From contig CALVSS010000002.1 of assembly GCA_944359095.1 (NCBI GenBank), forward strand, positions 1-44,627: 44,627 nucleotides of DNA. The letters run 5' to 3'. A program made the position numbers and the translations under genes. The stretch comes from an uncultured Bacilli bacterium. GTDB lineage: Bacteria; Bacillota_I; Bacilli_A; RF39; UBA660. The notes under the pieces were generated by a model. The model made no database searches and was not told where the DNA came from. It saw only the letters and a list, made by a program, of their open reading frames with translations. Positions 1,574 to 22,966 of this stretch are shown here, piece after piece. Within the stretch, counting starts at the first letter, position 1. Each line of letters opens with the position of its first letter.

Positions 1574-1603
1574 GAAAAAAAACTACTATTTAGCATTAGC
1601 AGT
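1574..1603 (-). terminator. Probable terminator overlapping the csp 3' end
   Basis: On the minus strand, ACTGCTA and TAGTAGT form a 7-bp stem (one G-U pair) with an 8-nt loop, followed by 8 T. Confidence 0.45.
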
Positions 1604-1807
1604 TTCTTTAACTAATTTTACATTTAAAGCTTGGTATCCCTTGCTTGTTTCAACCAATTTAAATTCTACTAGTTGTCCTTCAGATAAAGTCTTATAACCT
1701 TCTAATTCTATTGCTGAATAGTGTACGAATACATCTTCATTTTCTTTGTATTCAATAAAGCCATAGCCTTTATCATTGTTGAACCATTTTACGCGTCCAA
1801 CCATCAT
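1586..1807 (-). CDS. Cold-shock domain protein (CspA family)
   Basis: [19 protein letters not shown]...VFVHYSAI contains the RNP1/RNP2 motifs. Start set at ATG 1807, which has a GAGGTG RBS. The ORF-track start at 1837 adds 10 unlikely residues. Confidence 0.9.
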
Positions 1808-1943
1808 GTTCTTGCACCTCATTTCTACCAACAGCATCGTTTATCTCCTTGGTGATTACATCATACCAATTTTTGCCAACCCAACGACAAAAATTCCGTT
1901 AATTGCTATTGGTAGTTACTTTGATGGTTTGTATTCTTCTTTT

Positions 1944-1960
1944 TTCGACAAAATTCGACA
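1944..1960 (-). promoter_or_regulatory. Tandem pair of perfect Spo0A-box heptamers (TGTCGAA-TTT-TGTCGAA on the minus strand)
   Basis: Plus strand reads TTCGACAAAATTCGACA. The reverse complement holds two exact 0A-box heptamers spaced 10 bp start to start, in the csp/agrB divergent intergenic region. Confidence 0.5.
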
Positions 1961-2053
1961 AAATTTATTTTTAATTAATTATTTGATTGATTTTTTTGTT
2001 TTTAATCTTATTATAGTTATATAATAAGATTGATTGAGGTTTGGTGGTTGTAT

Positions 2054-2662
2054 ATGAAACAATTATTTTTGAATAAAAGCATGAATTTTATCTGCAAATA
2101 CCAATTCTTTTCTGACTACGATAAGAAAAAATTACGATATGGATTAGAAGGAATTTATCTTACTATTACCAAATTGGTTATATTACTCATTCTAGCTGTC
2201 ATATTAAATATGTTAAAAGAGTTTATTTTAGTAACTATTTTATTTAACATTATTCGATATACAGGTTTTGGATTTCATGCTGAAAAAAGTTATCAATGCT
2301 TATGCTTTTCAACTTTTAATTTTGTTGCAATACCATATTTTTTGTTACATGTACATTTACCTAACTCTGTAGTTTATATTATTTGTGCGATATGTATTTT
2401 TCACTATTTACTATTTGCACCTGCAGATACAAAAAAAAGACCTCTTTCAAATAAGAGAAAAAGGATCATTCGTAAAATTGTTACTGTTACGATTGGACTT
2501 ATTTATACATTTGCAATTATTTTATTGCAAAACGAATATTGGACTGCAATTATATTATCTGCGTTAGTTATTCAGTGCATTGTTGTTAGCCCAATTACAT
2601 ACTGGTTATTTAAACAACCTTATAATAATTACAAAGGATTAAATACTAGCAATAGTATTTAA
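2054..2662 (+). CDS. agrB: AgrB-family membrane peptidase (processes the autoinducing-peptide precursor)
   Basis: Polytopic membrane protein. IRYTGFGFHAEKSYQC has His and Cys 7 residues apart, as in S. aureus AgrB H77/C84. APADTKKRPL matches the conserved AgrB loop. ATG 2054 preferred over TTG 2030. Confidence 0.85.
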   Translation: MKQLFLNKSMNFICKYQFFSDYDKKKLRYGLEGIYLTITKLVILLILAVILNMLKEFILVTILFNIIRYTGFGFHAEKSYQCLCFSTFNFVAIPYFLLHVHLPNSVVYIICAICIFHYLLFAPADTKKRPLSNKRKRIIRKIVTVTIGLIYTFAIILLQNEYWTAIILSALVIQCIVVSPITYWLFKQPYNNYKGLNTSNSI

Positions 2663-2690
2663 TATAAATTATTAGAAAAGGAGATGTAGT

Positions 2691-2813
2691 ATGAAAAAAA
2701 GATTATCAATGTTACTTGCAGCAGTAGCTATGTTAGCAACAGGAGCAGCTAGTTTAGGATGTTGGTGGTGGACTGTTGATGAACCAGATTCATTTGGAAT
2801 ATTAAAGGACTAA
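2691..2813 (+). CDS. agrD: AgrD-like autoinducing-peptide precursor, 40 aa (MKKRLSMLLAAVAMLATGAASLGCWWWTVDEPDSFGILKD)
   Basis: Absent from the ORF track (too short). AAAGGAG RBS 7 nt upstream of the ATG, 28 nt after the agrB stop. Hydrophobic leader, single Cys, acidic Pro-containing tail. Confidence 0.7.
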   Translation: MKKRLSMLLAAVAMLATGAASLGCWWWTVDEPDSFGILKD

Positions 2814-2835
2814 GTTCCTTTTTTATTATGCCATT

Positions 2836-4128
2836 TTAATTTTTTGACACAAAAACTTGTTGAATATAGTAATTATCAATGATTTCTTGTTTTTGTTCTA
2901 GCCACTTATTTTCTTTGATTAATTTTGAGGCAAAATATAGACCGTTTCCTCTTCCCTCGCCTTTAGATGATACTCCTTTTTTATTTCTATCCTTCATATT
3001 TTTGTGCCTTTTAAATGTATTTGAAAAAACTATACTCACTCTATCTTTTAATTCATAAATTTCAATCATTAAATTTTTCTTTCTACTTTCAGCTGCAGCC
3101 TCGATTGCATTATCAAAATATATACCAATCAATTTACATAATATTCTAACTTGCTTCTCAGATAATTTTGTTAATAATCCTTTTGATTCAATACTTACAT
3201 CTGTTGTTAAATTTATTTTTTGTTTTTGTGCGATTGCCGCTTTATAATACATCAATCCCTTTATTCCTCCTTTTGGGAGGTTTTTTAGATTTGTTACTGC
3301 TTGTCCTTCAATATTAATATTATCTTCTAATATTTCATCGATTTTTTCTTTTACTTTCTTTTCTTTCGTTAAGCATCTTAACACAGCTAACTGATTTTTA
3401 TATTCATGGCGATTTAACTGCTCTTTTTCTATCCAATCTTCAAAATTTTGCACATATATAAACATATTATCATATTCATCAGATAATTTTTTATAATCAT
3501 TTTTTCCTTGGATATAAATAAACATAATTACAATAAATACAATTATAACAATTAAGTTTATAAAATATCCTTTTACATAAGTTTCTGTTATGGTAATATT
3601 ATATGCTAAACAGCTAAAATCAACGATTAATAATACAAAAAATATCCAATTTCCAACTACAATCTTTTCAGTTAGAGAAGATAAAAATTGTTTTATGGGA
3701 TTAACATTTTTATTAATATTGATAAATATAATACTTAAAGTTCCAACAGCGACATTTGCTGTAATATTTAATATTTCTGAATTTCGTATTTCATTGATAT
3801 CAAAGAATCCTCTCATGACAAAAGATACTAGCATATCTGAAATTAGCATTATTGTCATAGCAATTGTTGTACAAATGCTACTTTTTTCTAAAGATATATT
3901 AAATATTTCTTTAAAAAAAATTATATTTATAAGATACATTGTTAATGAAAATATCATTGTATATTGAATACGATGTAACATTACTGAAATTATTATTGAA
4001 ATTAATAAACAACCAATAATTTTAACATTTATATGTATATGTGGTTCATCTAAGATTTTTTTTATGATATAAAAGATTGTAAAAATCATTATAAGTGAAC
4101 ATATAATTTTATATAACTCCTCTAACAC
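2836..4128 (-). CDS. AgrC-like (HPK10 family) membrane sensor histidine kinase
   Basis: About 6 N-terminal TM helices, H-box RHEYKNQLAVL, N-box FDNAIEAA, G-box GRGNGLY. Start uncertain: GTG 4128 has an AAGGAGA RBS 9 nt upstream; the longest ORF starts at GTG 4179. Confidence 0.85.
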   Translation of the reverse strand: MLEELYKIICSLIMIFTIFYIIKKILDEPHIHINVKIIGCLLISIIISVMLHRIQYTMIFSLTMYLINIIFFKEIFNISLEKSSICTTIAMTIMLISDMLVSFVMRGFFDINEIRNSEILNITANVAVGTLSIIFININKNVNPIKQFLSSLTEKIVVGNWIFFVLLIVDFSCLAYNITITETYVKGYFINLIVIIVFIVIMFIYIQGKNDYKKLSDEYDNMFIYVQNFEDWIEKEQLNRHEYKNQLAVLRCLTKEKKVKEKIDEILEDNINIEGQAVTNLKNLPKGGIKGLMYYKAAIAQKQKINLTTDVSIESKGLLTKLSEKQVRILCKLIGIYFDNAIEAAAESRKKNLMIEIYELKDRVSIVFSNTFKRHKNMKDRNKKGVSSKGEGRGNGLYFASKLIKENKWLEQKQEIIDNYYIQQVFVSKN

Positions 4129-4840
4129 GATTATACATCTCCTTCTTTTTACTTCTTGAAGTTTCTTTGAATTCTTCACCGTTTTTTAATAGGACTAAGT
4201 TTTTAGTAAAATTATAACTACGAACTTGTTCTACGTTAATAGCAACGGCCCTATTACATTTTACAAATCTTTTATCTAATTTGGCTAGTACTTCATTTAA
4301 AGAACCTTGAATTAAATAAGTTCCATCTTCTGCTTCTATAATACATCTTTTGCTGTCCATTTCTTTTTCAATTTTTATAATATTTTTAAATTCTATATTA
4401 TAAGCTACATTTTTATAATTATATCTTAGGCATTTATATTTATTATCATAGTGTTTCATACATATTAGTAGGGCATCTTGTAGTTTTTTCTCTGAATGAT
4501 CTAGTTTATTTATAAAATCTACTAGCATTAATCTTTTACCTAGAGCCTCATATTTATATTCTGCATAACCTGATATCATAATTATCATTGATACCCAATC
4601 GTCTAATTCTTCTCTAATCATTCTAGCGGCATCTATTCCAGAACCTTCATCTGTTCTAATATCAAGTAAATAAATTTTAAATCCTTTTATTTGTTTTACT
4701 GCTTTCTTCCATAATGAATTATAATTTTTAAATGTATAACATTTATATTCAATATCATATTTCATCATAAACTTATCAATTTGCTCTTTATATCTTTTTA
4801 ATAAATTAGATTCATCCTCACAAATTATAAAATTTATCAT
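4109..4840 (-). CDS. LytTR-family response regulator (AgrA-like)
   Basis: Receiver domain (ICEDE acidic pocket, YLLDIRT phospho-acceptor Asp) plus a C-terminal LytTR DNA-binding domain. AAGGAGG RBS. Overlaps the kinase gene start. Confidence 0.9.
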   Translation of the reverse strand: MINFIICEDESNLLKRYKEQIDKFMMKYDIEYKCYTFKNYNSLWKKAVKQIKGFKIYLLDIRTDEGSGIDAARMIREELDDWVSMIIMISGYAEYKYEALGKRLMLVDFINKLDHSEKKLQDALLICMKHYDNKYKCLRYNYKNVAYNIEFKNIIKIEKEMDSKRCIIEAEDGTYLIQGSLNEVLAKLDKRFVKCNRAVAINVEQVRSYNFTKNLVLLKNGEEFKETSRSKKKEMYNRVRGVI

Positions 4841-4875
4841 TGGTTTTCCTCCTTTATTTTTACCAAAATTTTCCA

Positions 4876-4902
4876 GTTATATAATAAAGAAAAACTGCTA
4901 GT
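4876..4902 (-). terminator. Rho-independent terminator after the tagO-like gene
   Basis: ACTGCTA (4884-4890) pairs with TAGCAGT (4896-4902), 5-nt loop, then a T-rich run (TTTTTCTT) on the minus strand. Confidence 0.6.
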
Positions 4903-4920
4903 CGTTAGCAGTCCTTGGTT

Positions 4921-6024
4921 TTAGGATTTTTTTCTTCTGAAGAATGATATCTTTTGTTCTATTTCTTTTGTTCTTGTTGGTGTTTTATCAGAAATTATTG
5001 TAGTATGTAATACAAACCATAATACAATTATAAATATAATAATATATACTATTTTTCCTAAAACTGGATCTTTAATCGTATAAAGAATGGATGCTGATGC
5101 AAATAGTAGGTTTATACCATAAATAATTAATACTGTTGTTCTTTGAGAAAAGTTCATACCTAATAGTTGGTGATGTAAGTGTTGCTTGTCTGCTTGAAAT
5201 GGAGGTTGTCCTTTTAATAGTCTTCTTATAATAGCAAACAAGGTATCTAATATAGGAATTCCTAAAATCATAAGTGGTACAAAGAAAGATGTTAGGGCTG
5301 GTCCTTTAAATTCTAATAAAGTAATAATTGATATTATAAAGCCCATAAATGTTGCACAATCTCCGGCAAATATCTTTGCTGGATAAAAATTATGTAGTAA
5401 GAATCCTAAAGTAGATCCTAACATAATAAAGGTTAAAATCATTACTAAACTTCCACCACGGCCTTGATAAAATCCAATAATTCCAATTGTCAAATAGAAT
5501 ATTGAACATACTCCTCCGCTTAATCCATCTGCTCCATCTATTAAATTTATAATGTTCGTACAAGCAACGATAAATAATATAGTTATCCAAGGAGCAAATA
5601 TTCCAAAGTCAAATGAAAATCCAAACGCTGTTATATTATCTAATGTAATTTGGCCATAAAAGACTATAATACAAGCGGCTATTAAATGACCAATTAGTTT
5701 TTGATAGGCTCTTATTGGCTTAATGTCATCTGTGATTCCTGTTAAGACAACAATAAAACTTCCTATTAGTACAGAATTCATTCTAATACTTTGTTCTCCA
5801 AATAACATATATCCAAATAAAAATCCTAAAAAGATTCCAACTCCACCTAATTTAGGAGTTGCTTTTTTATGAATATGTCTATGTCCTTCATCTGCTCTTG
5901 GTACATCAATTGCTCCAACGTGTATTGCAATTTTTTTCATGAAAGGCATTATAATTGCAGTAAATATAAAAGTTACTAATACTATTTTACTAGCATCTAA
6001 AATTTGTTCTTTCATTATCGTCAC
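4921..6024 (-). CDS. Glycosyltransferase family 4, polyprenyl-phosphate sugar-1-phosphate transferase (TagO/WecA/MraY-like)
   Basis: 367 aa with about 10-11 TM helices and the NLIDGADGL motif typical of the MraY/WecA superfamily. Confidence 0.85.
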   Translation of the reverse strand: MTIMKEQILDASKIVLVTFIFTAIIMPFMKKIAIHVGAIDVPRADEGHRHIHKKATPKLGGVGIFLGFLFGYMLFGEQSIRMNSVLIGSFIVVLTGITDDIKPIRAYQKLIGHLIAACIIVFYGQITLDNITAFGFSFDFGIFAPWITILFIVACTNIINLIDGADGLSGGVCSIFYLTIGIIGFYQGRGGSLVMILTFIMLGSTLGFLLHNFYPAKIFAGDCATFMGFIISIITLLEFKGPALTSFFVPLMILGIPILDTLFAIIRRLLKGQPPFQADKQHLHHQLLGMNFSQRTTVLIIYGINLLFASASILYTIKDPVLGKIVYIIIFIIVLWFVLHTTIISDKTPTRTKEIEQKISFFRRKKS

Positions 6025-6078
6025 TTCCTATTAAAATTATATCATTTTTACTTTTAATAGAAAAGAAAAAAACCAATT

Positions 6079-7083
6079 TTATTGGTCTTCTTCTAGTAAA
6101 GCTATATTATTTAATAATGTTCCTGTTCCTTCAGCTACACAAGTAAGTGGAGATTCTGCAATTAAAATAGGGACTTGTAGTTCTTTTTCTAATACTTCTG
6201 GTAGTCCTGTAAGCATTGCTCCTCCACCAGTTAAAATAATACCTTTTTCAACAATATCTCCTGATAATTCTGGAGGTGTTTGCTCTAAAACATTGGTTGT
6301 CGCTTTAATTATTTTTTGAATACTTTCTTCTAAAGCTTTCTTTGTTTCATCTTGAGTTATTTCAATGGTATCTGGTAGGCCAGTAATTAAATTTCTTCCT
6401 CGTACTTCTAGTTTTTCTTTCTTATTCGGATCATAAATATTAGAGAATTTTATTTTTATGTCTTCGGCGGTTCTTTCTCCAATTAATAATTTATAATTAT
6501 CTTTTATATATTTTATGATATCTTGGTCGAAAACATTTCCAGCAATACGTACAGAAGCTGATGATACAATATCATTTAATGATAAAATAGCAATATCTGT
6601 TGTTCCTCCACCAATATCTATAACCATGTTGGCCGTTGGTTTTGAAATATCCATTCCTGCTCCAATAGCTGCAACTTTTGGTTCTTCTTCTATGTATACT
6701 TTTCTAGCTCCTGTTCTTTCAGCTGCTTCTTTAATAGCATTTTTTTCTACTTGTGTAATATTTGTTGGACAGCATATTAATATTCTTGGCCTTGAAAATA
6801 ATTTTTTTGCTTTTATTTTTTTGATAAATGTATTTAACATTATTTCTGTTATTTCAAAGTCAGCAATTACTCCATCTTTCATTGGCTTTATAGCCTTTAC
6901 TTTTCCTGGAGTTCTACCTAACATTTCATTTGCTTCTGTTCCAACAGCAATGACACTTTTAGAATCTGTATCAATTGCTACAATACTTGGTTCATTTAAT
7001 ACTATTCCTTGGCCTTTAACATATATTAAAACGTTTGCTGTTCCTAAATCTATTCCTATATCTTTTGCCCACATATATGTCAC
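6079..7083 (-). CDS. mreB: Rod-shape-determining actin homologue, MreB/Mbl family
   Basis: DIGIDLGTANVLIY, DIGGGTTD and LTGGGA actin-fold motifs. The start may be ATG 7074 rather than GTG 7083. Confidence 0.9.
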   Translation of the reverse strand: MTYMWAKDIGIDLGTANVLIYVKGQGIVLNEPSIVAIDTDSKSVIAVGTEANEMLGRTPGKVKAIKPMKDGVIADFEITEIMLNTFIKKIKAKKLFSRPRILICCPTNITQVEKNAIKEAAERTGARKVYIEEEPKVAAIGAGMDISKPTANMVIDIGGGTTDIAILSLNDIVSSASVRIAGNVFDQDIIKYIKDNYKLLIGERTAEDIKIKFSNIYDPNKKEKLEVRGRNLITGLPDTIEITQDETKKALEESIQKIIKATTNVLEQTPPELSGDIVEKGIILTGGGAMLTGLPEVLEKELQVPILIAESPLTCVAEGTGTLLNNIALLEEDQ

Positions 7084-7173
7084 ATCCTTTTCATCATTAA
7101 TATTTTATCATAAAATCGCCATTTTATAATAAAATATATTCATCTTTTTTTCTTTTATGAAAAAAAGAGTATA

Positions 7174-7821
7174 TTACTCTTTCTCTTCTGTTGTTTGTAA
7201 CTCTTTATTTAGATATAAAGTTGGATTTACAACTTGACCATTTACATATAATTCAAAGTGTAAATGATTACCCATATCTTTATCTAATTCATTTGTTCCA
7301 CTTTTACCAAGTACCTGTCCCTGAGTTACTACATCACCTTTTTTTACAGATGTTTCTGATAGACTTTGATATAAACTAACATATCCATTATCATGTTTAA
7401 TTTCTATTACTTTTCCTAAAGTTTCATCATCTTTTACATCTGTAACACTACCATCTAATATAGCTACAACATCAAATGTTTTTTCAGAAACAAAATCAAC
7501 TCCTGAATTTTGCATATATGTATTATCATGATAAATAATAGATTTTGTTTGGGTATCAGCATCTGCCTTATAATCATAATAGTTTTTACCTATTGTTACA
7601 GTTTGATCTGTATAAGGATTAATGATTGTTTTTGTTTCGTTGATTACTGGCTCTTCTTCTTCTTCAAGAATCGTATTTGTTACATAGCTAGTTGGATAAT
7701 CTTCTGTATTATCTTCTTTTTGTAAATTCTTGCTTAGCAATGCTGTTCCAAAAATTACACTTGTAATTGCTATAATCAATAGTGTTGGTAATACATATGG
7801 TCTTAGTTTTCTTCTTTTCAT
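7174..7821 (-). CDS. Membrane-anchored LytM (M23) domain protein with a degenerate metal site, SpoIIQ-like architecture
   Basis: N-terminal TM helix (LRPYVLPTLLIIAITSVIFGTALL) and a C-terminal LytM domain. HLHFE is retained, but the HxxxD motif reads NSGVD. Start at ATG 7821 with a GAGGTGA RBS. Confidence 0.7.
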   Translation of the reverse strand: MKRRKLRPYVLPTLLIIAITSVIFGTALLSKNLQKEDNTEDYPTSYVTNTILEEEEEPVINETKTIINPYTDQTVTIGKNYYDYKADADTQTKSIIYHDNTYMQNSGVDFVSEKTFDVVAILDGSVTDVKDDETLGKVIEIKHDNGYVSLYQSLSETSVKKGDVVTQGQVLGKSGTNELDKDMGNHLHFELYVNGQVVNPTLYLNKELQTTEEKE

Positions 7822-7872
7822 TTTTTTCACCTCATTATAAGTTTTGACCAAAAAAAAAGATTTATACTTCTT

Positions 7873-8070
7873 TTAAAAAAATTTTGAAGAAATAAATAAA
7901 TCCATTAAAAAGTTTGTTACTAAATAAATTAGTGATAGCCCTAATAGAAAATAAAATACTCTTGCTTGTACAATATGATTTTTTTTAAATATTTGATTTA
8001 TGTTGACTGAATCCATGGCCCAAATTACTACTATTGTTACAAATACATATAATAATAGTTTGCCTAACAT
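7873..8070 (-). CDS. Small integral membrane protein, DUF1146/YwzB-like
   Basis: 65 aa with two TM helices. Family assigned from recalled similarity and from the B. subtilis neighbourhood (ywzB near murAA and mbl). Confidence 0.55.
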   Translation of the reverse strand: MLGKLLLYVFVTIVVIWAMDSVNINQIFKKNHIVQARVFYFLLGLSLIYLVTNFLMDLFISSKFF

Positions 8071-8510
8071 TGTTGTTCCTCGTACTTTGCTATTTTTTGT
8101 CTACGTCTAACATGTTTTTCTTCATCTGATGCTTTGGTGTTTATAAATTTTTCTATTAGTTCTAGAGCCTTGGATAGTGTCGTTTTTTCTCCGAAAGCAA
8201 TAATATTTGCATCATTATCTTTTCTAGTTGCTTCTGCTTCTTCTATTCTATCTACTTTTGCACAACGAATTCCTTTTACTTTGTTACAGGCTATACTAAT
8301 TCCTATTCCTGTTCCACAAATAGCTATTCCAAAATCTGCATTTTTACTTGTAATTAGTTTTCCTAATTTAAAGGCATAATCTGGGTAATCCACAGATTGT
8401 TCTGAATTTGTTCCACAGTCAATCATTTGATATTTATCTTTTAATTGTTCTATAATTTGTTTTTTTAAATTATATCCTCTATGATCACTAGCAATTCCAA
8501 TTTTCAACAT
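8064..8510 (-). CDS. rpiB: Ribose-5-phosphate isomerase B (RpiB/LacAB family)
   Basis: MLKIGIASDHRGYNLK...GIAICGTGIGISIACNK is the typical RpiB core. Confidence 0.9.
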   Translation of the reverse strand: MLKIGIASDHRGYNLKKQIIEQLKDKYQMIDCGTNSEQSVDYPDYAFKLGKLITSKNADFGIAICGTGIGISIACNKVKGIRCAKVDRIEEAEATRKDNDANIIAFGEKTTLSKALELIEKFINTKASDEEKHVRRRQKIAKYEEQQC

Positions 8511-8574
8511 ACGTTTCCTTCTTTCTTATTAATATTATATCACTTAACAATGCTTTTTTCATTTATAACTATAT

Positions 8575-8597
8575 TTTATCCACAATTCCTGTGGATA
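8575..8597. promoter_or_regulatory. Inverted pair of DnaA-box-like 9-mers upstream of rpiB
   Basis: TTATCCACA (8575-8583) is a perfect DnaA-box consensus. After a 5-bp spacer, TGTGGATAT (8589-8597) is the reverse complement ATATCCACA, an 8/9 match. The arms form an 8-bp perfect palindrome. Confidence 0.3.
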
Positions 8598-8604
8598 TTT
8601 TATG

Positions 8605-8634
8605 TAAAACAAAAAAACTACTTTTCGTAGTTTT
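8605..8634 (-). terminator. Rho-independent terminator after the NrnA-like DHH gene
   Basis: AAAACTAC (8614-8621) pairs with GTAGTTTT (8627-8634), 5-nt loop, then a T-run on the minus strand. Overlaps the stop codon. Confidence 0.6.
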
Positions 8635-9619
8635 ATTTTTGTATTTTATGACTTAACTCTTCTTTAAGTGAAATCTTTTCTTTTTCTGCTTCATATTCAG
8701 AAAGAACTTTTGCTATTACATTTTCAAAGGTGTCATTATATAATCTTCCTACACACATTGTTTCATGACCACCACCATTACATTCTGTTGCAATTTCTAA
8801 GATGTTGATTGGACATTCACCTAACTTTTTAAATTTTATAATGTAGTCGTTTCCTATTCCTATGATAAAGCAACTTACTGGATTTTCTTTTGTTGGTGCA
8901 ACTTTCTTATGAAAGTCATTATGATTTACTAATAAAGAAGTATCTTTACTGTTTTCTGGCTCTAAAAGCTTATATACTTTTAATCCTTCTACTGGTACTG
9001 ATACTGGTTCTATTTTGCTTAGTAAATATTCTTGTTTAAGAGTTAGCTTTACCATACTTATAATTGCGTTTTGCTTTTCTTCGGATGTTAAAGGAAGCGA
9101 TAAAATAGTTTCTACCGTTTTGTCAGTTACATTATAATTAAATTCTGATGTATCTGATGCGATTCCTATATACAAGTTATAGGCCATATTACTAGGTATA
9201 TCTAGTTCTTTTTCTAATAATTTTTCAGCAATAATTTGACAAGTCGCTGCTGCCTTTGAATCAATTAATTTGTTATTATCTGGTACTTCTAATTCTACTC
9301 TATTACCTGTGTGATGATCAATTAAATATCTTTTTTCCACAGGTACTTGTTCAAATAGTTCTATACCATAAACTCTATCATATTCATTGGTATCGCAAAC
9401 TAAAGCATAATCCAAATGTATATTTTTTGCTTCTTCTATTGAAAAATGCTTTCTATTTCCTTTAACTTTTTCGTCTAAATAACTTGATTCTATTATAGGT
9501 ACTACTTTCAAATTTGAATAGTATGTTTCTAATATCTCTGCCATTGTCTCTGTGCTGCATAATGCATCTAGATCACATCCTTTATGAGTAAATATTCCAA
9601 CATTCTTCATAAGGGTCAT
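8633..9619 (-). CDS. DHH/DHHA1 phosphoesterase (NrnA-like nanoRNase / pAp phosphatase family)
   Basis: Motifs GCDLDALCS, IDHHTGN and GGGHETM in a 328-aa soluble protein. Confidence 0.75.
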   Translation of the reverse strand: MTLMKNVGIFTHKGCDLDALCSTETMAEILETYYSNLKVVPIIESSYLDEKVKGNRKHFSIEEAKNIHLDYALVCDTNEYDRVYGIELFEQVPVEKRYLIDHHTGNRVELEVPDNNKLIDSKAAATCQIIAEKLLEKELDIPSNMAYNLYIGIASDTSEFNYNVTDKTVETILSLPLTSEEKQNAIISMVKLTLKQEYLLSKIEPVSVPVEGLKVYKLLEPENSKDTSLLVNHNDFHKKVAPTKENPVSCFIIGIGNDYIIKFKKLGECPINILEIATECNGGGHETMCVGRLYNDTFENVIAKVLSEYEAEKEKISLKEELSHKIQK

Positions 9620-9933: not shown

Positions 9934-10653
9934 TCAGTTATTTTTTTCTTTTGCAAGTTTTTTTGTTATTTCATAAGCTATTTTCTTATATCCTTCTCTT
10001 CTAATATAAATACTATTAGGATTTAAAAAATCTTCATTTGTTATTATCTTAGCTGTTGATATGTATTCTATTCCTTGCATATTTTTATAAATTGTTTCTA
10101 GTTTTGTTAATCCTTCTTTTATATATATATTTTCAAATGGGATATTAGGGTATCCAATGATATAAATAGTTTTTGGATAATATGTTTTTATTTCTTTTAT
10201 TAATCTTGTTAATTCTTTTTCAATATTGTTCATTATGCTATTTAATTTATACTCATTTAAATTTGGAGTGATTGCTATATGATAGATAAGGTCATTTAAT
10301 CCTATTGTTATTGTTACTAAATTGGATTCTCTTAATATTTCTTTTATATTTTTTTCACTATGATTTATTGTTATTTTTTCATTTGTTACGATTGCATCAT
10401 AAAGATTATTAATGGATTCATCTTTTGATGTGTAGTCTTTAGTATATAATTTTAATTTTTTACTTTTTTGTAAACTATCTTTTATAAAATCACTATAACC
10501 ATATTCTTCTATTCCATAGGAATTTATGCCTTTAGCATAGCCATCTCCTAAAGAAGTATAATTATAGTAATGATTGTGATTATTTTTATAAATCATAAAT
10601 ATTGTGAAAATAATAAGTAGAAAAATAATTAATTTATAGTGTTTTTTTATCAT
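9934..10653 (-). CDS. Membrane-anchored SGNH/GDSL-fold protein with substituted catalytic residues
   Basis: N-terminal TM helix. Block I reads LGDGYAKG where GDS is expected. Block III GLND is intact. Block V reads NSIY where DxxH is expected. Confidence 0.6.
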   Translation of the reverse strand: MIKKHYKLIIFLLIIFTIFMIYKNNHNHYYNYTSLGDGYAKGINSYGIEEYGYSDFIKDSLQKSKKLKLYTKDYTSKDESINNLYDAIVTNEKITINHSEKNIKEILRESNLVTITIGLNDLIYHIAITPNLNEYKLNSIMNNIEKELTRLIKEIKTYYPKTIYIIGYPNIPFENIYIKEGLTKLETIYKNMQGIEYISTAKIITNEDFLNPNSIYIRREGYKKIAYEITKKLAKEKNN

Positions 10654-13480: not shown

Positions 13481-13999
13481 TTAAAAATACTTATCAATTA
13501 CTTCTTTTACAAAGGAAGTATATTCGACATTTTCTTGCTCTTCTTCTGTATCAAGAAGACATAGTGGAGGAAATAATACGCACCAAAAGTTTTCTCCTAA
13601 GCCATTTCCTAACGTAATTACTAGGGATTCATATTCTCCTTCTTCGTAAACTATGCCTTTATATTCTTTTTCTGGAAAATAATTCATTCCATAATCTATT
13701 GTAAATGTTTCTTTACTTTGATTTTTTTCTAATGTTTCTTTTACAATTTTAGAAAATTCTGGGATAGTATTTTTTATATTTTTTCTAGAATTTTCTAGTG
13801 ATGTATCTAAAAAAGTTAATTTTCTAATTTCTTGATTTAAATTAGTTACTACTTTCTTTTTTAAGGTTTGGTCTTCTTCTTTATCACTGTTAGCAATTAC
13901 TCTAAATCTTATCGCCTCTTTGGGAATGATTACTTTTTCTTCTTTATTAATCGCTAATATAGTAATTATTACTGCTAAAAAGATAATTAGTTTTTTCAT
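13481..13999 (-). CDS. spoIIR: Stage II sporulation protein R-like signalling protein
   Basis: Signal/anchor helix, then AIRFRVIANSDKEEDQTLK and the C-terminal FWCVLFPPLC motif typical of SpoIIR. Syntenic with B. subtilis (near prmC and mntP). Confidence 0.75.
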   Translation of the reverse strand: MKKLIIFLAVIITILAINKEEKVIIPKEAIRFRVIANSDKEEDQTLKKKVVTNLNQEIRKLTFLDTSLENSRKNIKNTIPEFSKIVKETLEKNQSKETFTIDYGMNYFPEKEYKGIVYEEGEYESLVITLGNGLGENFWCVLFPPLCLLDTEEEQENVEYTSFVKEVIDKYF

Positions 14000-16002: not shown

Positions 16003-16028
16003 GAAAAAAACTAGATTATTGTTCTAGT
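16003..16028 (-). terminator. Probable terminator after rpoE
   Basis: ACTAGA (16010-16015) pairs with TCTAGT (16023-16028), 7-nt loop, then 7 T on the minus strand. Confidence 0.45.
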
Positions 16029-16468
16029 TCTAATTCATCTTCATCTATTACGACTAAATCTTTTAATTCTTCGTTGGTATTTCCATCATATTCTTCATCA
16101 GTATCATCATAGCTATCTTCTTCTAGTTCTTCACTTTCTTCTTTTTCAGAATCAGAATCGTTATCTTCCTCTTCTTCCTCATCCTCGTCTTCATCGGTTA
16201 CTTTAGCTACTTTATCAGAAGTGTGACGACTTCTTAAATCCCATTTTCCATCATCTAAAAGAATGAATCTTTTATCAGTTGATAATGCTGTATAGTAATC
16301 ACCTATTTTGGCTTCAAAAGTACTTTCTGGTAAATCTAATAGCTTTATGATTTTTCTAAATAAGTCTGCTGTATTTATAGGCTTTTTACTTTCTTCTAAT
16401 ATTAAATTAGTAATATCTTTATTTGATAATAATTCTAAATCTTCTTTCTTCATTTTACTAAGACTCAT
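16016..16468 (-). CDS. rpoE: RNA polymerase delta subunit
   Basis: N-terminal HARE-HTH-like domain (DLFRKIIKLL...YYTALSTDKRFILLDDGKWDLR) and a long poly-acidic C-terminal tail. Confidence 0.85.
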   Translation of the reverse strand: MSLSKMKKEDLELLSNKDITNLILEESKKPINTADLFRKIIKLLDLPESTFEAKIGDYYTALSTDKRFILLDDGKWDLRSRHTSDKVAKVTDEDEDEEEEEDNDSDSEKEESEELEEDSYDDTDEEYDGNTNEELKDLVVIDEDELELEQ

Positions 16469-18735: not shown

Positions 18736-18759
18736 AATTAAAAAAGGCTTATGCCTTTT
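18736..18759 (-). terminator. Rho-independent terminator after the 258-aa hypothetical gene
   Basis: AAAAGGC (18742-18748) pairs with GCCTTTT (18753-18759), TTAT loop, then a T-run on the minus strand. Confidence 0.6.
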
Positions 18760-19525
18760 CTCTTGATATATATGTATATATTCCATCTTCTTCTTGTTCA
18801 AATGTATAAATATAATTTTCTGCTGTTGTCACTTTGGAATCATCCATGCTGGTTGTTGTCACTGTTTCATACAATTTTATTTGTTTTCCTATTTTTTCTG
18901 CTTTTGTTAATTCTTTTGTAGTTTCTACTGCTGATGAACCCCCAGCTTCTATTGCAAATAAAATATAAGCATCTAAAGATTGTACATATTTATATCTTCC
19001 TACTCCATATTTATCAGTAAACATAATTGTATTTAAATCTAAATTAGCTTGGGAACCATATAAGGTTTTATAGATTCTTTCTACTACATCTTTAGAAATC
19101 ATATTTTTTCCTTGACTATAACAATTACCTAGATTAGGATCTGTTTGATTTGGTACTTGAAAGCAAGAAATCATATCCATGTCAGATTCTTTAATATTAA
19201 CATATACTAATTCCATTTTATTTACTTCTGGCATGTTTTTGATGTCAATTTTAGCTTGACTCATTCCTTCTATTTCATACATCCAATATGGTGTATATTT
19301 ACTATTCATTCCCACTTCATTATATAAATTTTGAACAAGTCGATTATCTAAACTTAAATTTTCTTGCTTTTCTTCGCTTGAGGTATTTTCTTTTGGTAAA
19401 TTTTCTTTTTCTTTTGGTGTAGTAATATATAACTTATTATAGCCAATATACGTTAAACTTAGTAATAAACCTATTAGTAATATTATAATTAGGACTGTTT
19501 TTCCAGGACTTTTTTCTCTTTCCAT
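18749..19525 (-). CDS. Hypothetical membrane-anchored extracytoplasmic protein
   Basis: 258 aa with one N-terminal TM helix (TVLIIILLIGLLLSLTYIGY) and then a polar linker. I recognise no family motif. Confidence 0.6.
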   Translation of the reverse strand: MEREKSPGKTVLIIILLIGLLLSLTYIGYNKLYITTPKEKENLPKENTSSEEKQENLSLDNRLVQNLYNEVGMNSKYTPYWMYEIEGMSQAKIDIKNMPEVNKMELVYVNIKESDMDMISCFQVPNQTDPNLGNCYSQGKNMISKDVVERIYKTLYGSQANLDLNTIMFTDKYGVGRYKYVQSLDAYILFAIEAGGSSAVETTKELTKAEKIGKQIKLYETVTTTSMDDSKVTTAENYIYTFEQEEDGIYTYISREKA

Positions 19526-19627: not shown

Positions 19628-21601
19628 ATGCGTTTTTTTAGAAAATTAGCTAAATTATCGATGATTATTTTTGTTGTTATTTTACTTATTTACTTGGGTA
19701 TATATTTATATGTTAAATTATCACCAAAAGTAGTAATTAATACTACTAATAGTGTTTTTCTATATGATAAAAATGAAGAAGTCTTTTTTCAGGGAAATGA
19801 TGAGAAAGAATGGGTATCACTTGATGATATATCCCCTTATGTTATTGATGCTACTATCTATACTGAAGATAAGAATTTTTATAAACATCATGGATTTGAC
19901 TATTTAAGAATTTTAAAGGCCTTATATGTTAACCTAACTGCAGGTTCTACTAAGCAGGGTGCTTCTACTATTACTCAACAGTATGCTAAAAATTTGTTTT
20001 TATCTTTTGATAAAACTTGGAAAAGAAAATGGGACGAAATGTGGTATACCATTAAAATTGAAGCTAATTATTCTAAAGATGAAATATTAGAAGGTTATTT
20101 AAATACTATTAATTATGGTCATGGAATGTATGGTATTGAAAATGCTAGTAAATATTATTTTGGTAAATCTGCTAGTGAACTAGATTTGGCTGAAGCAACG
20201 ATTTTAACAGGAATACCAAAATCTCCTTCTAATTATTCTCCTTTAATTAATCTTGATGCTGCGAAAGAAAGGCAATTATTAATTTTAAATACACTTGTAG
20301 AAAACGGTATTATTTCGGAAAAAGAAAAGAATAAAGCATATGATGAAGAACTCGTTTTCTTAGGTAAAGAAGACCGTGAAGAATTAACGACTGTTATGTA
20401 TTATCATGATGCGGTTATGGATGAATTAGAGACTATTGATAGTATTCCAAAATCTTATTCTGATACTAGTGGATTAAAAATCTATACTAATTTGGATTGG
20501 GATTTGCAAAAGAAAGTGGAAGAGAATATTAAAGAGTCTATTCCAGAAGACTCTGATATTCAGACTTCTGTTGTTTTAATGGATCCTAATACTGGTGGTG
20601 TTTTGGCCTTAGTTGGTGGAAAAAATTATAATGAATCTTCGTATAATCGAGCTACTGATTCTTTAAGACAAGTGGGTTCTACGATGAAACCATATCTTTA
20701 TTATGCTGCTTTAGAAAATGGATTTACTTCCAGTTCTTCTTTTACTAGTGAAGAGACTACGTTTGTTTTTAATAATCAAGAAGATTATACTCCGCAAAAT
20801 TATAATAAAACGTATGGTAACAAACCTATTTCTATGGGTACTGCTATTGCCTATTCAGAAAATATTTATGCTGTTAAAACTCATCTTTTTTTAGGAGGAG
20901 ATGCGTTAATTAATGTTGCTAGAAGAGTTGGTATTACTTCTAAATTAGAAAATGTTCCTTCTTTACCACTTGGTACCAATGAAATTAATATTTTAGAGAT
21001 GGCGGCTGGATATTCTGCTTTTGCTAATTTAGGATATAAAGTTGAACCTCATTTTATTGAAAAAGTTGTAGATTCCGATGGAAAGGTTTTATATGAAGCG
21101 AAAAACAAAAAAGATGCTGTTTTAAATCCTAGTATTACATTTATTTTAAACAATTTATTAACTGCTACTTATGATCCTGATTATATCGATTATAATTATC
21201 CAACGGCTATTGGTCTTTCTTCTAAACTTACTCATAAATATGCTTTAAAGAGTGGAACAACTGAAACGGATAATTGGGATATTGGGTTTAATAAGAATGT
21301 GGTTTGTGCCGTTTGGGTTGGTTATGATGATAATCAAGCTTTAAAAACTAGTGAATATAAATATGCACAAAATATTTGGTATCAATCAATTGAATATTAT
21401 GAGCGAAATGTTGATAGTAATGATGGTTGGTATGAAATGCCTAGTAATGTTTCTGCGGTATTAGTAGAACCAATTTCTGGTCGTTTAGCAACTGATACGG
21501 ATAAGAAAAAGAAAATGATGTATTTTATTAAAGGAACAGAACCAACTAGTAGTGAACAAGAAGTTTTTGATGAAAAAGTTGATGGTAGTTATCCTTCTTG
21601 A
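19628..21601 (+). CDS. Class A penicillin-binding protein (bifunctional glycosyltransferase/transpeptidase, PBP1A type)
   Basis: GT51 motifs EDKNFYKHHGFD and GASTITQQ. Transpeptidase motifs STMKP, SEN and KSGT. Confidence 0.9.
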   Translation: MRFFRKLAKLSMIIFVVILLIYLGIYLYVKLSPKVVINTTNSVFLYDKNEEVFFQGNDEKEWVSLDDISPYVIDATIYTEDKNFYKHHGFDYLRILKALYVNLTAGSTKQGASTITQQYAKNLFLSFDKTWKRKWDEMWYTIKIEANYSKDEILEGYLNTINYGHGMYGIENASKYYFGKSASELDLAEATILTGIPKSPSNYSPLINLDAAKERQLLILNTLVENGIISEKEKNKAYDEELVFLGKEDREELTTVMYYHDAVMDELETIDSIPKSYSDTSGLKIYTNLDWDLQKKVEENIKESIPEDSDIQTSVVLMDPNTGGVLALVGGKNYNESSYNRATDSLRQVGSTMKPYLYYAALENGFTSSSSFTSEETTFVFNNQEDYTPQNYNKTYGNKPISMGTAIAYSENIYAVKTHLFLGGDALINVARRVGITSKLENVPSLPLGTNEINILEMAAGYSAFANLGYKVEPHFIEKVVDSDGKVLYEAKNKKDAVLNPSITFILNNLLTATYDPDYIDYNYPTAIGLSSKLTHKYALKSGTTETDNWDIGFNKNVVCAVWVGYDDNQALKTSEYKYAQNIWYQSIEYYERNVDSNDGWYEMPSNVSAVLVEPISGRLATDTDKKKKMMYFIKGTEPTSSEQEVFDEKVDGSYPS

Positions 21602-21664: not shown

Positions 21665-22966
21665 ATGTATAAAAATTTAGATGATTTTTTTCGTCATGTT
21701 CAAAATCCATTAGATAGTAAAGATAGTATTTCTTCTTTAGTAGATATTTACTCTTCTTTACATGATTTTAATGGAAATTTTTATGCTAAATTAAAAAAAG
21801 TAAATTCTGTTAATGGTGGCTTTTATAACTTGGATGAAAAAAATGATTTTTTTGTTAGTTTATTTAATTGTTGGAAAGATATTATTCTTCACTCTAGTTT
21901 TTCTAAAGATCATAGACTAGATTCTTTTAAGAAATCTTTAGAAACTTTTCCTAATAGTAATAATATATTTGAAATTAAAGAATTATTATCAAATGAAGAA
22001 ATAAAAAACTATACTAATAGCTTCTTAAATACTGATTCTTCTTGGGTATGTATGGACTCTTTTCAAATTCATGAATTAGATTCTTTCCAACAACTACTTC
22101 CTTATGATGTGGAGCACCGTCTTTATATTAATATTGATTTGTGTAGTATTCATAAGTTAGGTAAATTGTTTTTTGAGCAATGTGAAAAGTCTCACTTACC
22201 TTATCACTTTAAATTTAGACAAGATGATGAGCGAGATGATTCTTTTGTTGTTTATTCTGATTCTAATCATTTATTAACTTATTATCATTTATTAGAAGAA
22301 ATTATAAATAAGCATCCTGATTTAAAAGAACATATTCATCGTCCTCCTCTTCTTACTGGAGTTGTTGATGAGTGGATAGGCTATGGTTCAGAATTTATGA
22401 TTCCTAGTCAATCTTATAATTCTATTCGAGCATATATTGTTCAGAAAGTATTACAAAAGGAATTTAAAGAAATTATTACTGAAAAGCCCAATTTGCCATT
22501 AAAAATTAATCGAAAATCAACTACTCTTATTGATGAAATTACTTCTAGGATAATCAGTAATAAAATTTCTATGCTTACAAATATTAACTCTATCTATTTT
22601 TTTGATACATATGGAATTAAGCCTGCTAATTTAAAAAAGAGAACTTTTTTAATTCCTTTCTATTATAAGATTAAAAAGACTATTCTTAATGACTTAAAAA
22701 AAAGTAATTGGGATTTTTCTAATCTTTCTTATAAATCTATCAAAATTAGTGATAGTGAATTTTATCAGAGTTTCTTTTCTACTTTTCCTGATATTTTAAA
22801 AAATTATCCAGAAGTAAACTTAGAAATTAAAAATTCCATTGTTAAAGAAGCTAAAACAGTTGGTATTTCTGATAAAAATTTTTGTTTTAATGTTTTTTCT
22901 ACTTGGAATTTGTCTCATGAACAGTCTGACAATAATTCTCAAAAAACTTATTATCTTTCTAAATAA
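21665..22966 (+). CDS. Hypothetical cytoplasmic protein, 433 aa, no family assigned
   Basis: Long intact ORF with its own promoter and terminator. No TM helix or signal peptide. Confidence 0.7.
   Translation: MYKNLDDFFRHVQNPLDSKDSISSLVDIYSSLHDFNGNFYAKLKKVNSVNGGFYNLDEKNDFFVSLFNCWKDIILHSSFSKDHRLDSFKKSLETFPNSNNIFEIKELLSNEEIKNYTNSFLNTDSSWVCMDSFQIHELDSFQQLLPYDVEHRLYINIDLCSIHKLGKLFFEQCEKSHLPYHFKFRQDDERDDSFVVYSDSNHLLTYYHLLEEIINKHPDLKEHIHRPPLLTGVVDEWIGYGSEFMIPSQSYNSIRAYIVQKVLQKEFKEIITEKPNLPLKINRKSTTLIDEITSRIISNKISMLTNINSIYFFDTYGIKPANLKKRTFLIPFYYKIKKTILNDLKKSNWDFSNLSYKSIKISDSEFYQSFFSTFPDILKNYPEVNLEIKNSIVKEAKTVGISDKNFCFNVFSTWNLSHEQSDNNSQKTYYLSK

Follow-up and report, generated by a model that had tools for sequence, protein, structure and literature searches.

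A 40-codon open reading frame beside agrB as the probable agrD of an agr-type quorum-sensing locus in uncultured gut Bacilli

The stretch of DNA discussed here, called the window, covers 44,627 nucleotides of contig CALVSS010000002.1 (assembly GCA_944359095.1) from an uncultured Bacilli bacterium. Its left part contains an agrB gene followed on the same strand by a small open reading frame (ORF), the probable agrD encoding the precursor of an autoinducing peptide (AIP), and on the opposite strand a sensor kinase gene and a response regulator gene that converge on this pair. The features of the locus are the following.

2054-2662, plus strand: agrB, encoding a 202-aa membrane cysteine endopeptidase/cyclase, the predicted processor of AgrD (PF04647, E 4.3e-31, 108.1 bits against a cut-off of 23)
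2677-2683, plus strand: Shine-Dalgarno sequence of agrD, AAAGGAG, 7 nt ahead of the ATG at 2691, read from the sequence
2691-2813, plus strand: probable agrD ORF, 40 codons, ATG at 2691 and stop codon at 2811-2813, read from the sequence
2691-2759, plus strand: agrD leader, residues 1-23, MKKRLSMLLAAVAMLATGAASLG, a signal-peptide-like basic N-terminus and then a hydrophobic stretch, nearly invariant in relatives
2760-2777, plus strand: agrD core, residues 24-29, C-W-W-W-T-V, the predicted macrocycle, delimited by the invariant Cys, the variable columns and the register
2778-2813, plus strand: agrD follower, residues 30-40, DEPDSFGILKD, and the stop codon, a putative AgrB recognition tail (E31 and P32 invariant, residue 30 D or E)
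2836-4128, minus strand: agrC-like sensor histidine kinase gene, 430-aa form, with an HATPase_c_5 domain, convergent with agrBD; the ORF can be extended to a GTG at 4179
4109-4840, minus strand: agrA-like LytTR response regulator gene, which opens the agrA-agrC operon (a receiver domain and LytTR, the latter with E 2.1e-12)

The stop codon of agrB (TAA, 2660-2662) is separated by 28 nt from the ATG of agrD, whose translation is MKKRLSMLLAAVAMLATGAASLGCWWWTVDEPDSFGILKD. The lone Cys of the peptide is residue 24 (TGT, 2760-2762) and is followed by three TGG codons; because the three Trp residues are encoded by TGG, the reading is independent of any alternative genetic code. An earlier interpretation made from the letters alone (the sequence-only reading) had given the same coordinates, the AAAGGAG site at 7 nt, the 28-nt gap and the single Cys at residue 24, all of which agree with the sequence. 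It had also called the ORF unannotated, which is correct for the ORF track on which it was based, but not for public collections, where the gene callers report the gene on every contig with the identical peptide. Ten such contigs were read, and the 8 places shown correspond to 8 different samples; the samples with the contig include ERZ16268251 and ERR4096467.

A search with the single peptide returned 49 relatives of 31-41 aa, mostly 40 aa, and a profile search with the family gave 631 matches. The related loci were collected by an AgrB scan with one genome per species, which yielded 45 loci, all from uncultured gut metagenome-assembled genomes (MAGs) labelled Bacilli, Tenericutes, Mycoplasma sp. 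CAG:877, Candidatus Faecimonas intestinavium or Erysipelotrichaceae. A small ORF is located 3' of agrB in 44 of the 45 species loci, with a size of 37-41 aa when counted from the shortest plausible start, and the 45th contig ends too early. In 21 orthologues the ratio of nonsynonymous to synonymous differences (pN/pS) is 0.34 for the leader, 0.12 for D/E-E-P, 0.71 for the core and 0.73 for the tail, with pS values of 0.5-0.7, the pattern expected when a translated gene keeps its frame under constraint but leaves a cassette within it free to vary. Thus, the conserved synteny, the relatives and the pN/pS values identify the ORF as a conserved translated gene rather than a chance ORF.

With a probability of about 0.88, this ORF is agrD, the AIP precursor gene of a complete agr-type quorum-sensing locus in which agrB-agrD converges with agrA-agrC. 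It has the hallmarks of such genes, namely a small size (~40-55 aa is the usual range) and a position beside agrB on the same strand, a nucleophilic Cys at a fixed distance from a charged Glu/Pro follower, a hydrophobic or amphipathic leader, and a core that co-varies with AgrB and with the AgrC sensor. The TIGR04223 AgrD model matches 34 of the 44 syntenic orthologues at E<=1 (best E 1.1e-7), the Pfam AgrD model PF05931 matches 7 of the 44, and two close relatives (P0069, P0099) carry the NCBI name 'cyclic lactone autoinducer peptide'. Furthermore, the distant orthologues look like ordinary clostridial AgrDs (e.g., MGFFANILAALGIGSAATGSQACHWFLIDEPECPESLIK) and tie the clade to the canonical xEPxxPxxL follower. 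The sequence-only reading had described an AgrD-like propeptide with a three-part layout and had pointed to AgrD profile searches and to the Cys and acidic-Pro tail of orthologous loci as checks. Its proposal holds, given agrB directly 5' of the ORF, the model matches and NCBI names, the co-varying core, and the conservation among relatives of leader, Cys and acidic-Pro follower, with the spacing C-x5-[D/E]-E-P in 147 of 148 sequences.

Some observations weigh against this assignment. The window peptide itself scores only 14.9 bits with TIGR04223 (cut-off 19, E 0.022), and a Pfam scan of the 40-aa peptide gave no match, PF05931 included. Its follower, DEPDSFG, is without the second Pro of the usual xEPxxP, whereas relatives have DEPKAP or DEPECP. 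The whole AgrD family of the clade is known from sequence alone, and literature searches on the peptide, on CWWWT and on RF39 together with agr found no relevant paper and no published agr or quorum-sensing work for this lineage. As an AgrD, the peptide is a new member of the family, belonging to a subgroup with a six-residue register, and not a new kind of system, because its relatives are already auto-annotated as AgrD and because six-membered and Trp-rich rings have characterised precedents.

The proteins encoded next to the peptide are consistent with this assignment. The motif R68-x6-H75-x6-C82 of AgrB is present in the window and in all 45 of the 45 relatives, with the same spacing as R70/H77/C84 of Staphylococcus aureus AgrB, where R70 and C84 have been described (PMC10196373). 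PDB sequences searched with the window AgrB contained no solved structure of a relative, the lone match being spurious (E 0.34). The kinase has a polytopic N-terminal region of 200 residues followed by a GHKL kinase part, and the regulator combines a receiver with a LytTR domain; the Pfam matches to HATPase_c_5 and LytTR are both above their cut-offs. The best PDB match of the kinase is the kinase module of S. aureus AgrC (6e52, E 1.9e-9), to whose RHDY the RHEY containing His241 aligns. The NCBIfam models for AgrC (E 7.6e-11, 42 bits against a cut-off of 500) and AgrA (E 6.5e-12, 46 bits against a cut-off of 400) match weakly, so that the two proteins appear to be of the agr type but not equivalogs of the Staphylococcus ones. 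At another locus, L060 (6144-8188), which has the core allele CLWWTV, the kinase gene is shorter (415 aa) and is followed, in place of agrA, by an oppositely oriented gene for a LysM protein; the agr locus of this contig may be rearranged or decaying.

The three parts of the peptide differ strongly in their variation. In the leader, MKKR precedes a hydrophobic segment at residues 5-19 (mean Kyte-Doolittle 2.02). Among 144 distinct segments, A20, G23, C24, E31 and P32 have zero entropy, while positions 25-29 reach 3.21, 0.49, 2.39, 2.87 and 3.26 bits and residues 30-32 drop to 0.58, 0 and 0 bits. No column of the entire peptide varies more than residue 29, and position 26 is Trp in 134 of the 144 segments. 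The 150 sequences contain 129 distinct cores, with Trp as the second residue after the Cys in 140 of the 150 and as the third in 61. A C-W-W-W start occurs in only two of the 129 distinct cores, CWWWTV and CWWWSV, and a WWW run is also found in CAWWWL. Trp richness is, then, a trait of the family, of which the window allele is the extreme. The three consecutive Trp residues, which the sequence-only reading had singled out as unusual, are a rare run indeed, but Trp-rich cores are the norm in this family, and a Trp-rich six-residue ring, cyclo(CWFWSY), has already been characterised. The cluster mates of the window peptide vary solely at ring position 2, where W, L, F or I is found.

Across all 44 loci the Glu of the follower is the sole invariant column. 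The nucleophile is Cys in ~41 of them, and two further loci have Thr at the aligned position (hand count). The exceptions are found among L048 (4652-4765), L056 (4606-4722) and L055 (3111-3227): two have Thr for Cys six residues ahead of DEP (..STFTWWLLADEP.., ..GTMFTIWIWTDEP..), and the third has its Cys one position earlier (..STCTLWWYLDEP..). The products of these orthologues may be lactones or variants with larger rings. Two metagenome relatives, P0048 and P0049, have no core, since one carries a frameshift-like replacement (..GAASVRVLRGGVSDEP..) and in the other the stretch from AAS to EP is deleted. Both may be assembly errors, or else natural agrD-null alleles that could be compared with agr-defective S. 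aureus.

The ring probably comprises six residues, CWWWTV. This size is favoured because of the C-x5-[D/E]EP register, the position of the boundary between variable and invariant columns, and the junctions of two characterised precursors. The boundary falls between residues 29 and 30. From the Cys through the follower, the window peptide aligns without gaps to the AgrD of Clostridium acetobutylicum, ...GKCVLVTLYEPKMPEELL (CVLVTL and then YEPKMP), whose AIP [CVLVTL] is a six-membered, tail-less macrocycle detected by mass spectrometry (MS) (PMC8251862; PMC12312760). In S. aureus AgrD1 the ring is C28-M32 (PMC12312760), and D33-E34, directly past the scissile bond, are essential for cleavage by AgrB (PMC10196373); the equivalent pair in the window is D30-E31. 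The window peptide has the five residues between Cys and x-E-P that define the six-ring subgroup, the ring itself being a prediction.

The sequence-only reading had instead proposed a five-residue thiolactone, CWWWT, by analogy with known five-residue rings. The peptide would still be an AgrD, but AgrB would cut one residue earlier and leave V29 in the follower. Five-residue rings are the commonest among characterised AIPs, and the Clostridium perfringens signal [CLWFT] likewise ends in Thr and has Trp as the second residue after the Cys (Table 1, PMC12312760). In addition, the six-residue size is based on register homology to two anchors only, and AgrB registers are not proven to be universal. 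On the other hand, residue 29, as the most variable column, is unlike a recognition residue, and Thr is found at position 28 in just 9 of 144 sequences. The register is that of C. acetobutylicum-type AgrDs, for which a six-membered ring has been detected, and in S. aureus the essential D-E pair stands immediately after the scissile bond. The five-residue ring is for these reasons a possible but rather doubtful product, and the junctions of C. acetobutylicum and S. aureus both favour CWWWTV.

The difference is of practical consequence. The computed m/z values of [M+H]+ are 862.3705 for cyclo-CWWWTV and 763.3021 for cyclo-CWWWT, and 919.39, 1032.48 and 1119.51 for six-residue rings with G, LG and SLG tails. 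Synthesising CWWWT (m/z 763.30), or searching MS data for it, would leave CWWWTV (m/z 862.37) undiscovered. Every clostridial AIP detected to date is without an N-terminal tail and rearranges to a homodetic lactam, the Trp-rich hexapeptide cyclo(CWFWSY) being one of them (PMC8251862). By analogy, tail-less cyclo(CWWWTV) would be the favoured product of the window locus, and a cut directly before the Cys is suggested because the residues at -3 and -1, S21 and G23, are small and invariant.

The alleles of the peptide are linked to those of its presumed partners. The window was compared with L061, from a strain whose AgrD core is CLWWTV. The DNA is ~100% identical over 4200-8800 (97-100% per 100-nt bin), but only 88% identical at the 3' end of agrB, 89% in agrD and, over the 5' part of agrC, which encodes the sensor, 66-85%. 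Among the proteins, AgrB has 99.2% identity in residues 1-130 and 91.7% in residues 131-202, and AgrC is 81% identical in the sensor (residues 1-200) and 95.2% in the kinase part, while AgrA reaches 98.8% and a glycosyltransferase (Pfam Glycos_transf_4) and MreB are 100% identical. The differences between the alleles are concentrated in AgrC residues 4-92 and AgrB residues 171-184. Three contigs from other samples with the window AgrD allele have AgrC sensors 99-100% identical to that of the window, and three contigs with the CLWWTV allele all carry the divergent sensor (81%). Because the core alleles are linked in this way to the AgrB C-terminus and the AgrC sensor, like the hypervariable agrB-agrD-agrC cassette that defines the specificity groups of S. 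aureus (PMC12312760), there is strong indirect evidence that the window peptide is processed by its own AgrB and sensed by its own AgrC. To the left, positions 900-2050, with hpf (Ribosomal_S30AE), a cold-shock gene and the intergenic stretch 5' of agrB, are merely 60-96% identical to L061; the entire left side of the agr locus, beyond the specificity cassette, looks like a recombination mosaic.

The MKKR-hydrophobic-SLGC leader raises the question of how it is removed. One variant of the AgrD assignment, which appears rather improbable, is that the leader is a genuine Sec/lipoprotein-type signal peptide, that the lipobox-like Cys is also the thiolactone Cys, and that removal is carried out by Lsp or by signal peptidase I (SPase I), cutting between G and C of the invariant S-x-G-C, and not by an MroQ-like protease. 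If true, the thiolactone would be obligatorily tail-less and would lead to cyclo(CWWWTV), or lipid-anchored and diffusible cyclic forms would exist side by side. It would also mean that Trp-rich hexapeptide pherotypes exist in large number in a gut lineage that is uncultured, has a reduced genome and is without described cell-cell signalling.

A different proposal, to which only very little weight can be given, is that the ORF encodes a small lipoprotein or secreted peptide, with the leader as a signal for signal peptidase II or I, Cys24 lipidated or N-terminal, no cycle, and an incidental adjacency to agrB. The sequence-only reading had expressed this worry over the lipobox-like SLGC. The worry is justified insofar as the basic and hydrophobic regions are present and a permissive PS00013-type pattern is found in 146 of 148 relatives, but stricter Gram-positive patterns fail (G+LPP 0/148, G+LPPv2 1/148), since the residue at -3, usually Leu, is invariably Ser. 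[quoted passage not shown] Nevertheless, distant orthologues beside the same AgrB family have no basic N-terminus (MGFFANILAAL...) and keep the Cys-to-DEP distance unchanged, and the Thr found at the aligned position of two orthologues in the hand count cannot be diacylglyceryl-modified. A lipoprotein would also leave the invariant DEP follower, the five hypervariable residues and the allele linkage with AgrB and AgrC unexplained. The lipobox-like leader is possibly of more interest as a route of leader removal than as an alternative to AgrD.

It is similarly improbable that the peptide is a linear pheromone or bacteriocin-induction peptide of the ComC/PlnA type for the adjacent kinase/LytTR pair, with no need for cyclisation by AgrB. 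In its favour, the kinase and the regulator score far under the cut-offs for the Staphylococcus AgrC and AgrA equivalogs, and an HPK10-type kinase with a LytTR regulator is also typical of linear-peptide three-component systems. Against it, an agrB with intact catalytic residues is always adjacent, the nucleophile, whether Cys or the occasional Thr of the hand count, stands at a fixed distance from the follower, and the closest PDB structure of the kinase is AgrC of S. aureus. A bacteriocin or double-glycine peptide was rejected, as there is neither a GG motif in the leader nor an ABC/C39 exporter gene in the neighbourhood.

Finally, a chance or decaying ORF without product, conceivable for merely 40 codons in AT-rich DNA and given the frameshifted or deleted core of a few relatives (P0048, P0049), is effectively refuted by the synteny in 44 of 45 loci, the 631 profile matches, the strong ribosome-binding site, and purifying selection on the leader and DEP while synonymous differences are near saturation.

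On the reading of the ORF as agrD with a six-residue core, the following pathway can be proposed. The basic-hydrophobic leader would hold the 40-aa AgrD at the membrane, where AgrB, with H75 and C82 as predicted catalytic residues, would recognise the invariant D30-E31-P32 follower. AgrB would most likely cut between V29 and D30, and the carbonyl of V29, as acyl donor, would be passed to the thiol of Cys24, as nucleophile, giving the six-residue thiolactone C-W-W-W-T-V. The follower DEPDSFGILKD would be lost during cyclisation and the leader removed afterwards. If this second cut falls directly before the Cys, a tail-less thiolactone would result, and an S-to-N acyl shift would convert it to homodetic cyclo(CWWWTV), as in clostridial AIPs. 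The AgrC-like kinase would then sense the secreted peptide through its polytopic N-terminal domain and phosphorylate the LytTR regulator, and this regulator would probably feed back on the agrBD promoter.

The locus shares features with several known agr systems. Its AgrD has the same Cys-to-follower register as that of C. acetobutylicum, C-x5-[Y/D]-E-P, and in both organisms agrBD and agrCA are separate transcription units (PMC12312760). However, C. acetobutylicum AgrD begins with a long leader of charged, amphipathic character (MNLKEQLNKVNDKF...), in contrast to the short, signal-peptide-like one in the window (MKKR-hydrophobic); the C. acetobutylicum core has no Trp, a LanM-like effector gene located downstream there is absent from the window locus, and only in the window does the agrAC operon converge on agrBD. 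The closest chemical precedent for the predicted cyclo(CWWWTV), when mature peptides and not precursors are compared, is Rc-AIP1 of Ruminiclostridium cellulolyticum, cyclo(CWFWSY), which likewise has a six-residue, Trp-rich, Cys-first core without a tail and is formed from a thiolactone that becomes a homodetic lactam. It differs in having two non-adjacent Trp residues instead of three consecutive ones, and its producer is a cultured, sporulating clostridium in which Rc-AIP1 controls sporulation.

As in groups I-IV of S. aureus agr, the AgrB C-terminus and the AgrC sensor diverge along with the core alleles, AgrA and the flanks being conserved, and both the D-E pair past the scissile bond and the spacing of the AgrB R/H/C residues are shared. 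S. aureus, on the other hand, has five-residue rings bearing tails 2-4 residues long, and one agrBDCA operon with RNAIII, as opposed to the predicted six-residue ring and convergent operons of the window, in which no Rfam RNA is found; the clade of the window is also far more diverse, with its 129 cores. The C-x-W start of the ring recurs in C. perfringens [CLWFT] and C. difficile [CPWII], for which five-residue rings and agrBD loci without adjacent agrCA have been reported (PMC12312760).

Further elements flank the agrBD genes.

1944-1960, plus strand: tandem heptad TTCGACA-AAA-TTCGACA, a candidate agrBD operator, invariant in 12 aligned agrB upstream regions
2020-2025, plus strand: putative -10-like hexamer TATAAT 5' of agrB, kept in 10 of the 12 aligned upstream regions
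2804-2826, plus strand: weak terminator-like hairpin AAAGGA/TCCTTT followed by a T run, overlapping the agrD stop codon (-8.9 kcal/mol, z-score -2.2 against shuffles)

The sequence TTCGACA-N3-TTCGACA is found exactly, once per locus, 5' of agrB in 27 of the 45 species, and near-exactly in most others. It is located ~100 nt 5' of agrB in most of the clade and ~220 nt in three distant loci labelled Erysipelotrichaceae or Bacillales that have an exact copy, and apart from the one at 1944-1960 no exact copy exists in the 44.6-kb window. This makes it an obvious candidate operator for autoinduction and possibly a binding site of the LytTR regulator AgrA. A point against such autoregulation is its architecture of 7-bp units with a 10-bp period, which is unlike that of known LytTR sites, where 9-bp repeats are ~21 bp apart, and which comes closer to a tandem operator of the CtsR type than to classical LytTR sites. 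The repeat was also sought upstream of agrA and is absent there, leaving co-regulation of both operons by the heptad unsupported.

A perfect 12-nt inverted repeat, AATCTTATTATA / TATAATAAGATT (2004-2031, plus strand), overlaps the -10-like hexamer of agrB; it is present in the window and in L015 and is not conserved in other species. A scan for consensus promoters gave no useful information in such AT-rich DNA, with fewer matches than in shuffles, and the hairpin at 2804-2826 is too weak for a consensus terminator scan. An Rfam scan of the whole window gave no match, neither to RNAIII-like nor to other known RNAs.

The host is an uncultured, AT-rich gut member of the Bacilli, whose MAGs are labelled Bacilli, Tenericutes, 'Mycoplasma sp. 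CAG:877' or Candidatus Faecimonas. Outside the agr locus the window consists of core chromosome close to the origin (gidB, parAB, dnaB, ssb and L9) and includes three genes that bear on the physiology of the organism.

6079-7083, minus strand: MreB, from the gene content of the window
13481-13999, minus strand: SpoIIR homologue (PF09551, E 1.4e-37)
19628-21601, plus strand: class A penicillin-binding protein (PBP1), from the gene content of the window

Judging by these genes, the organism is walled and carries at least one gene of the sporulation pathway, despite the Tenericutes and Mycoplasma labels of related MAGs. The cold-shock gene at 1586-1837 (minus strand) has two possible starts, an 83-aa form from 1837, with AAGGAGAT upstream, and a 73-aa form that is called on other contigs. 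Four ORFs of 150-433 aa, at 9934-10653, 16016-16468, 18749-19525 (-) and 21665-22966 (+), gave no Pfam match at E<=1e-5.

The locus follows the known logic of agr systems, and thus extends this family without opening a new one. Its interest lies mainly in the corrected product prediction, the very large diversity of pherotypes, the signal-peptide-like leader and the conserved candidate operator. An uncultured gut lineage appears to carry a complete and actively diversifying agr quorum-sensing system, in which the signal of a strain could be read from a cassette of 6 codons. The predicted pherotypes, which within one species differ solely at ring position 2, would be usable as strain markers. 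[quoted passage not shown]

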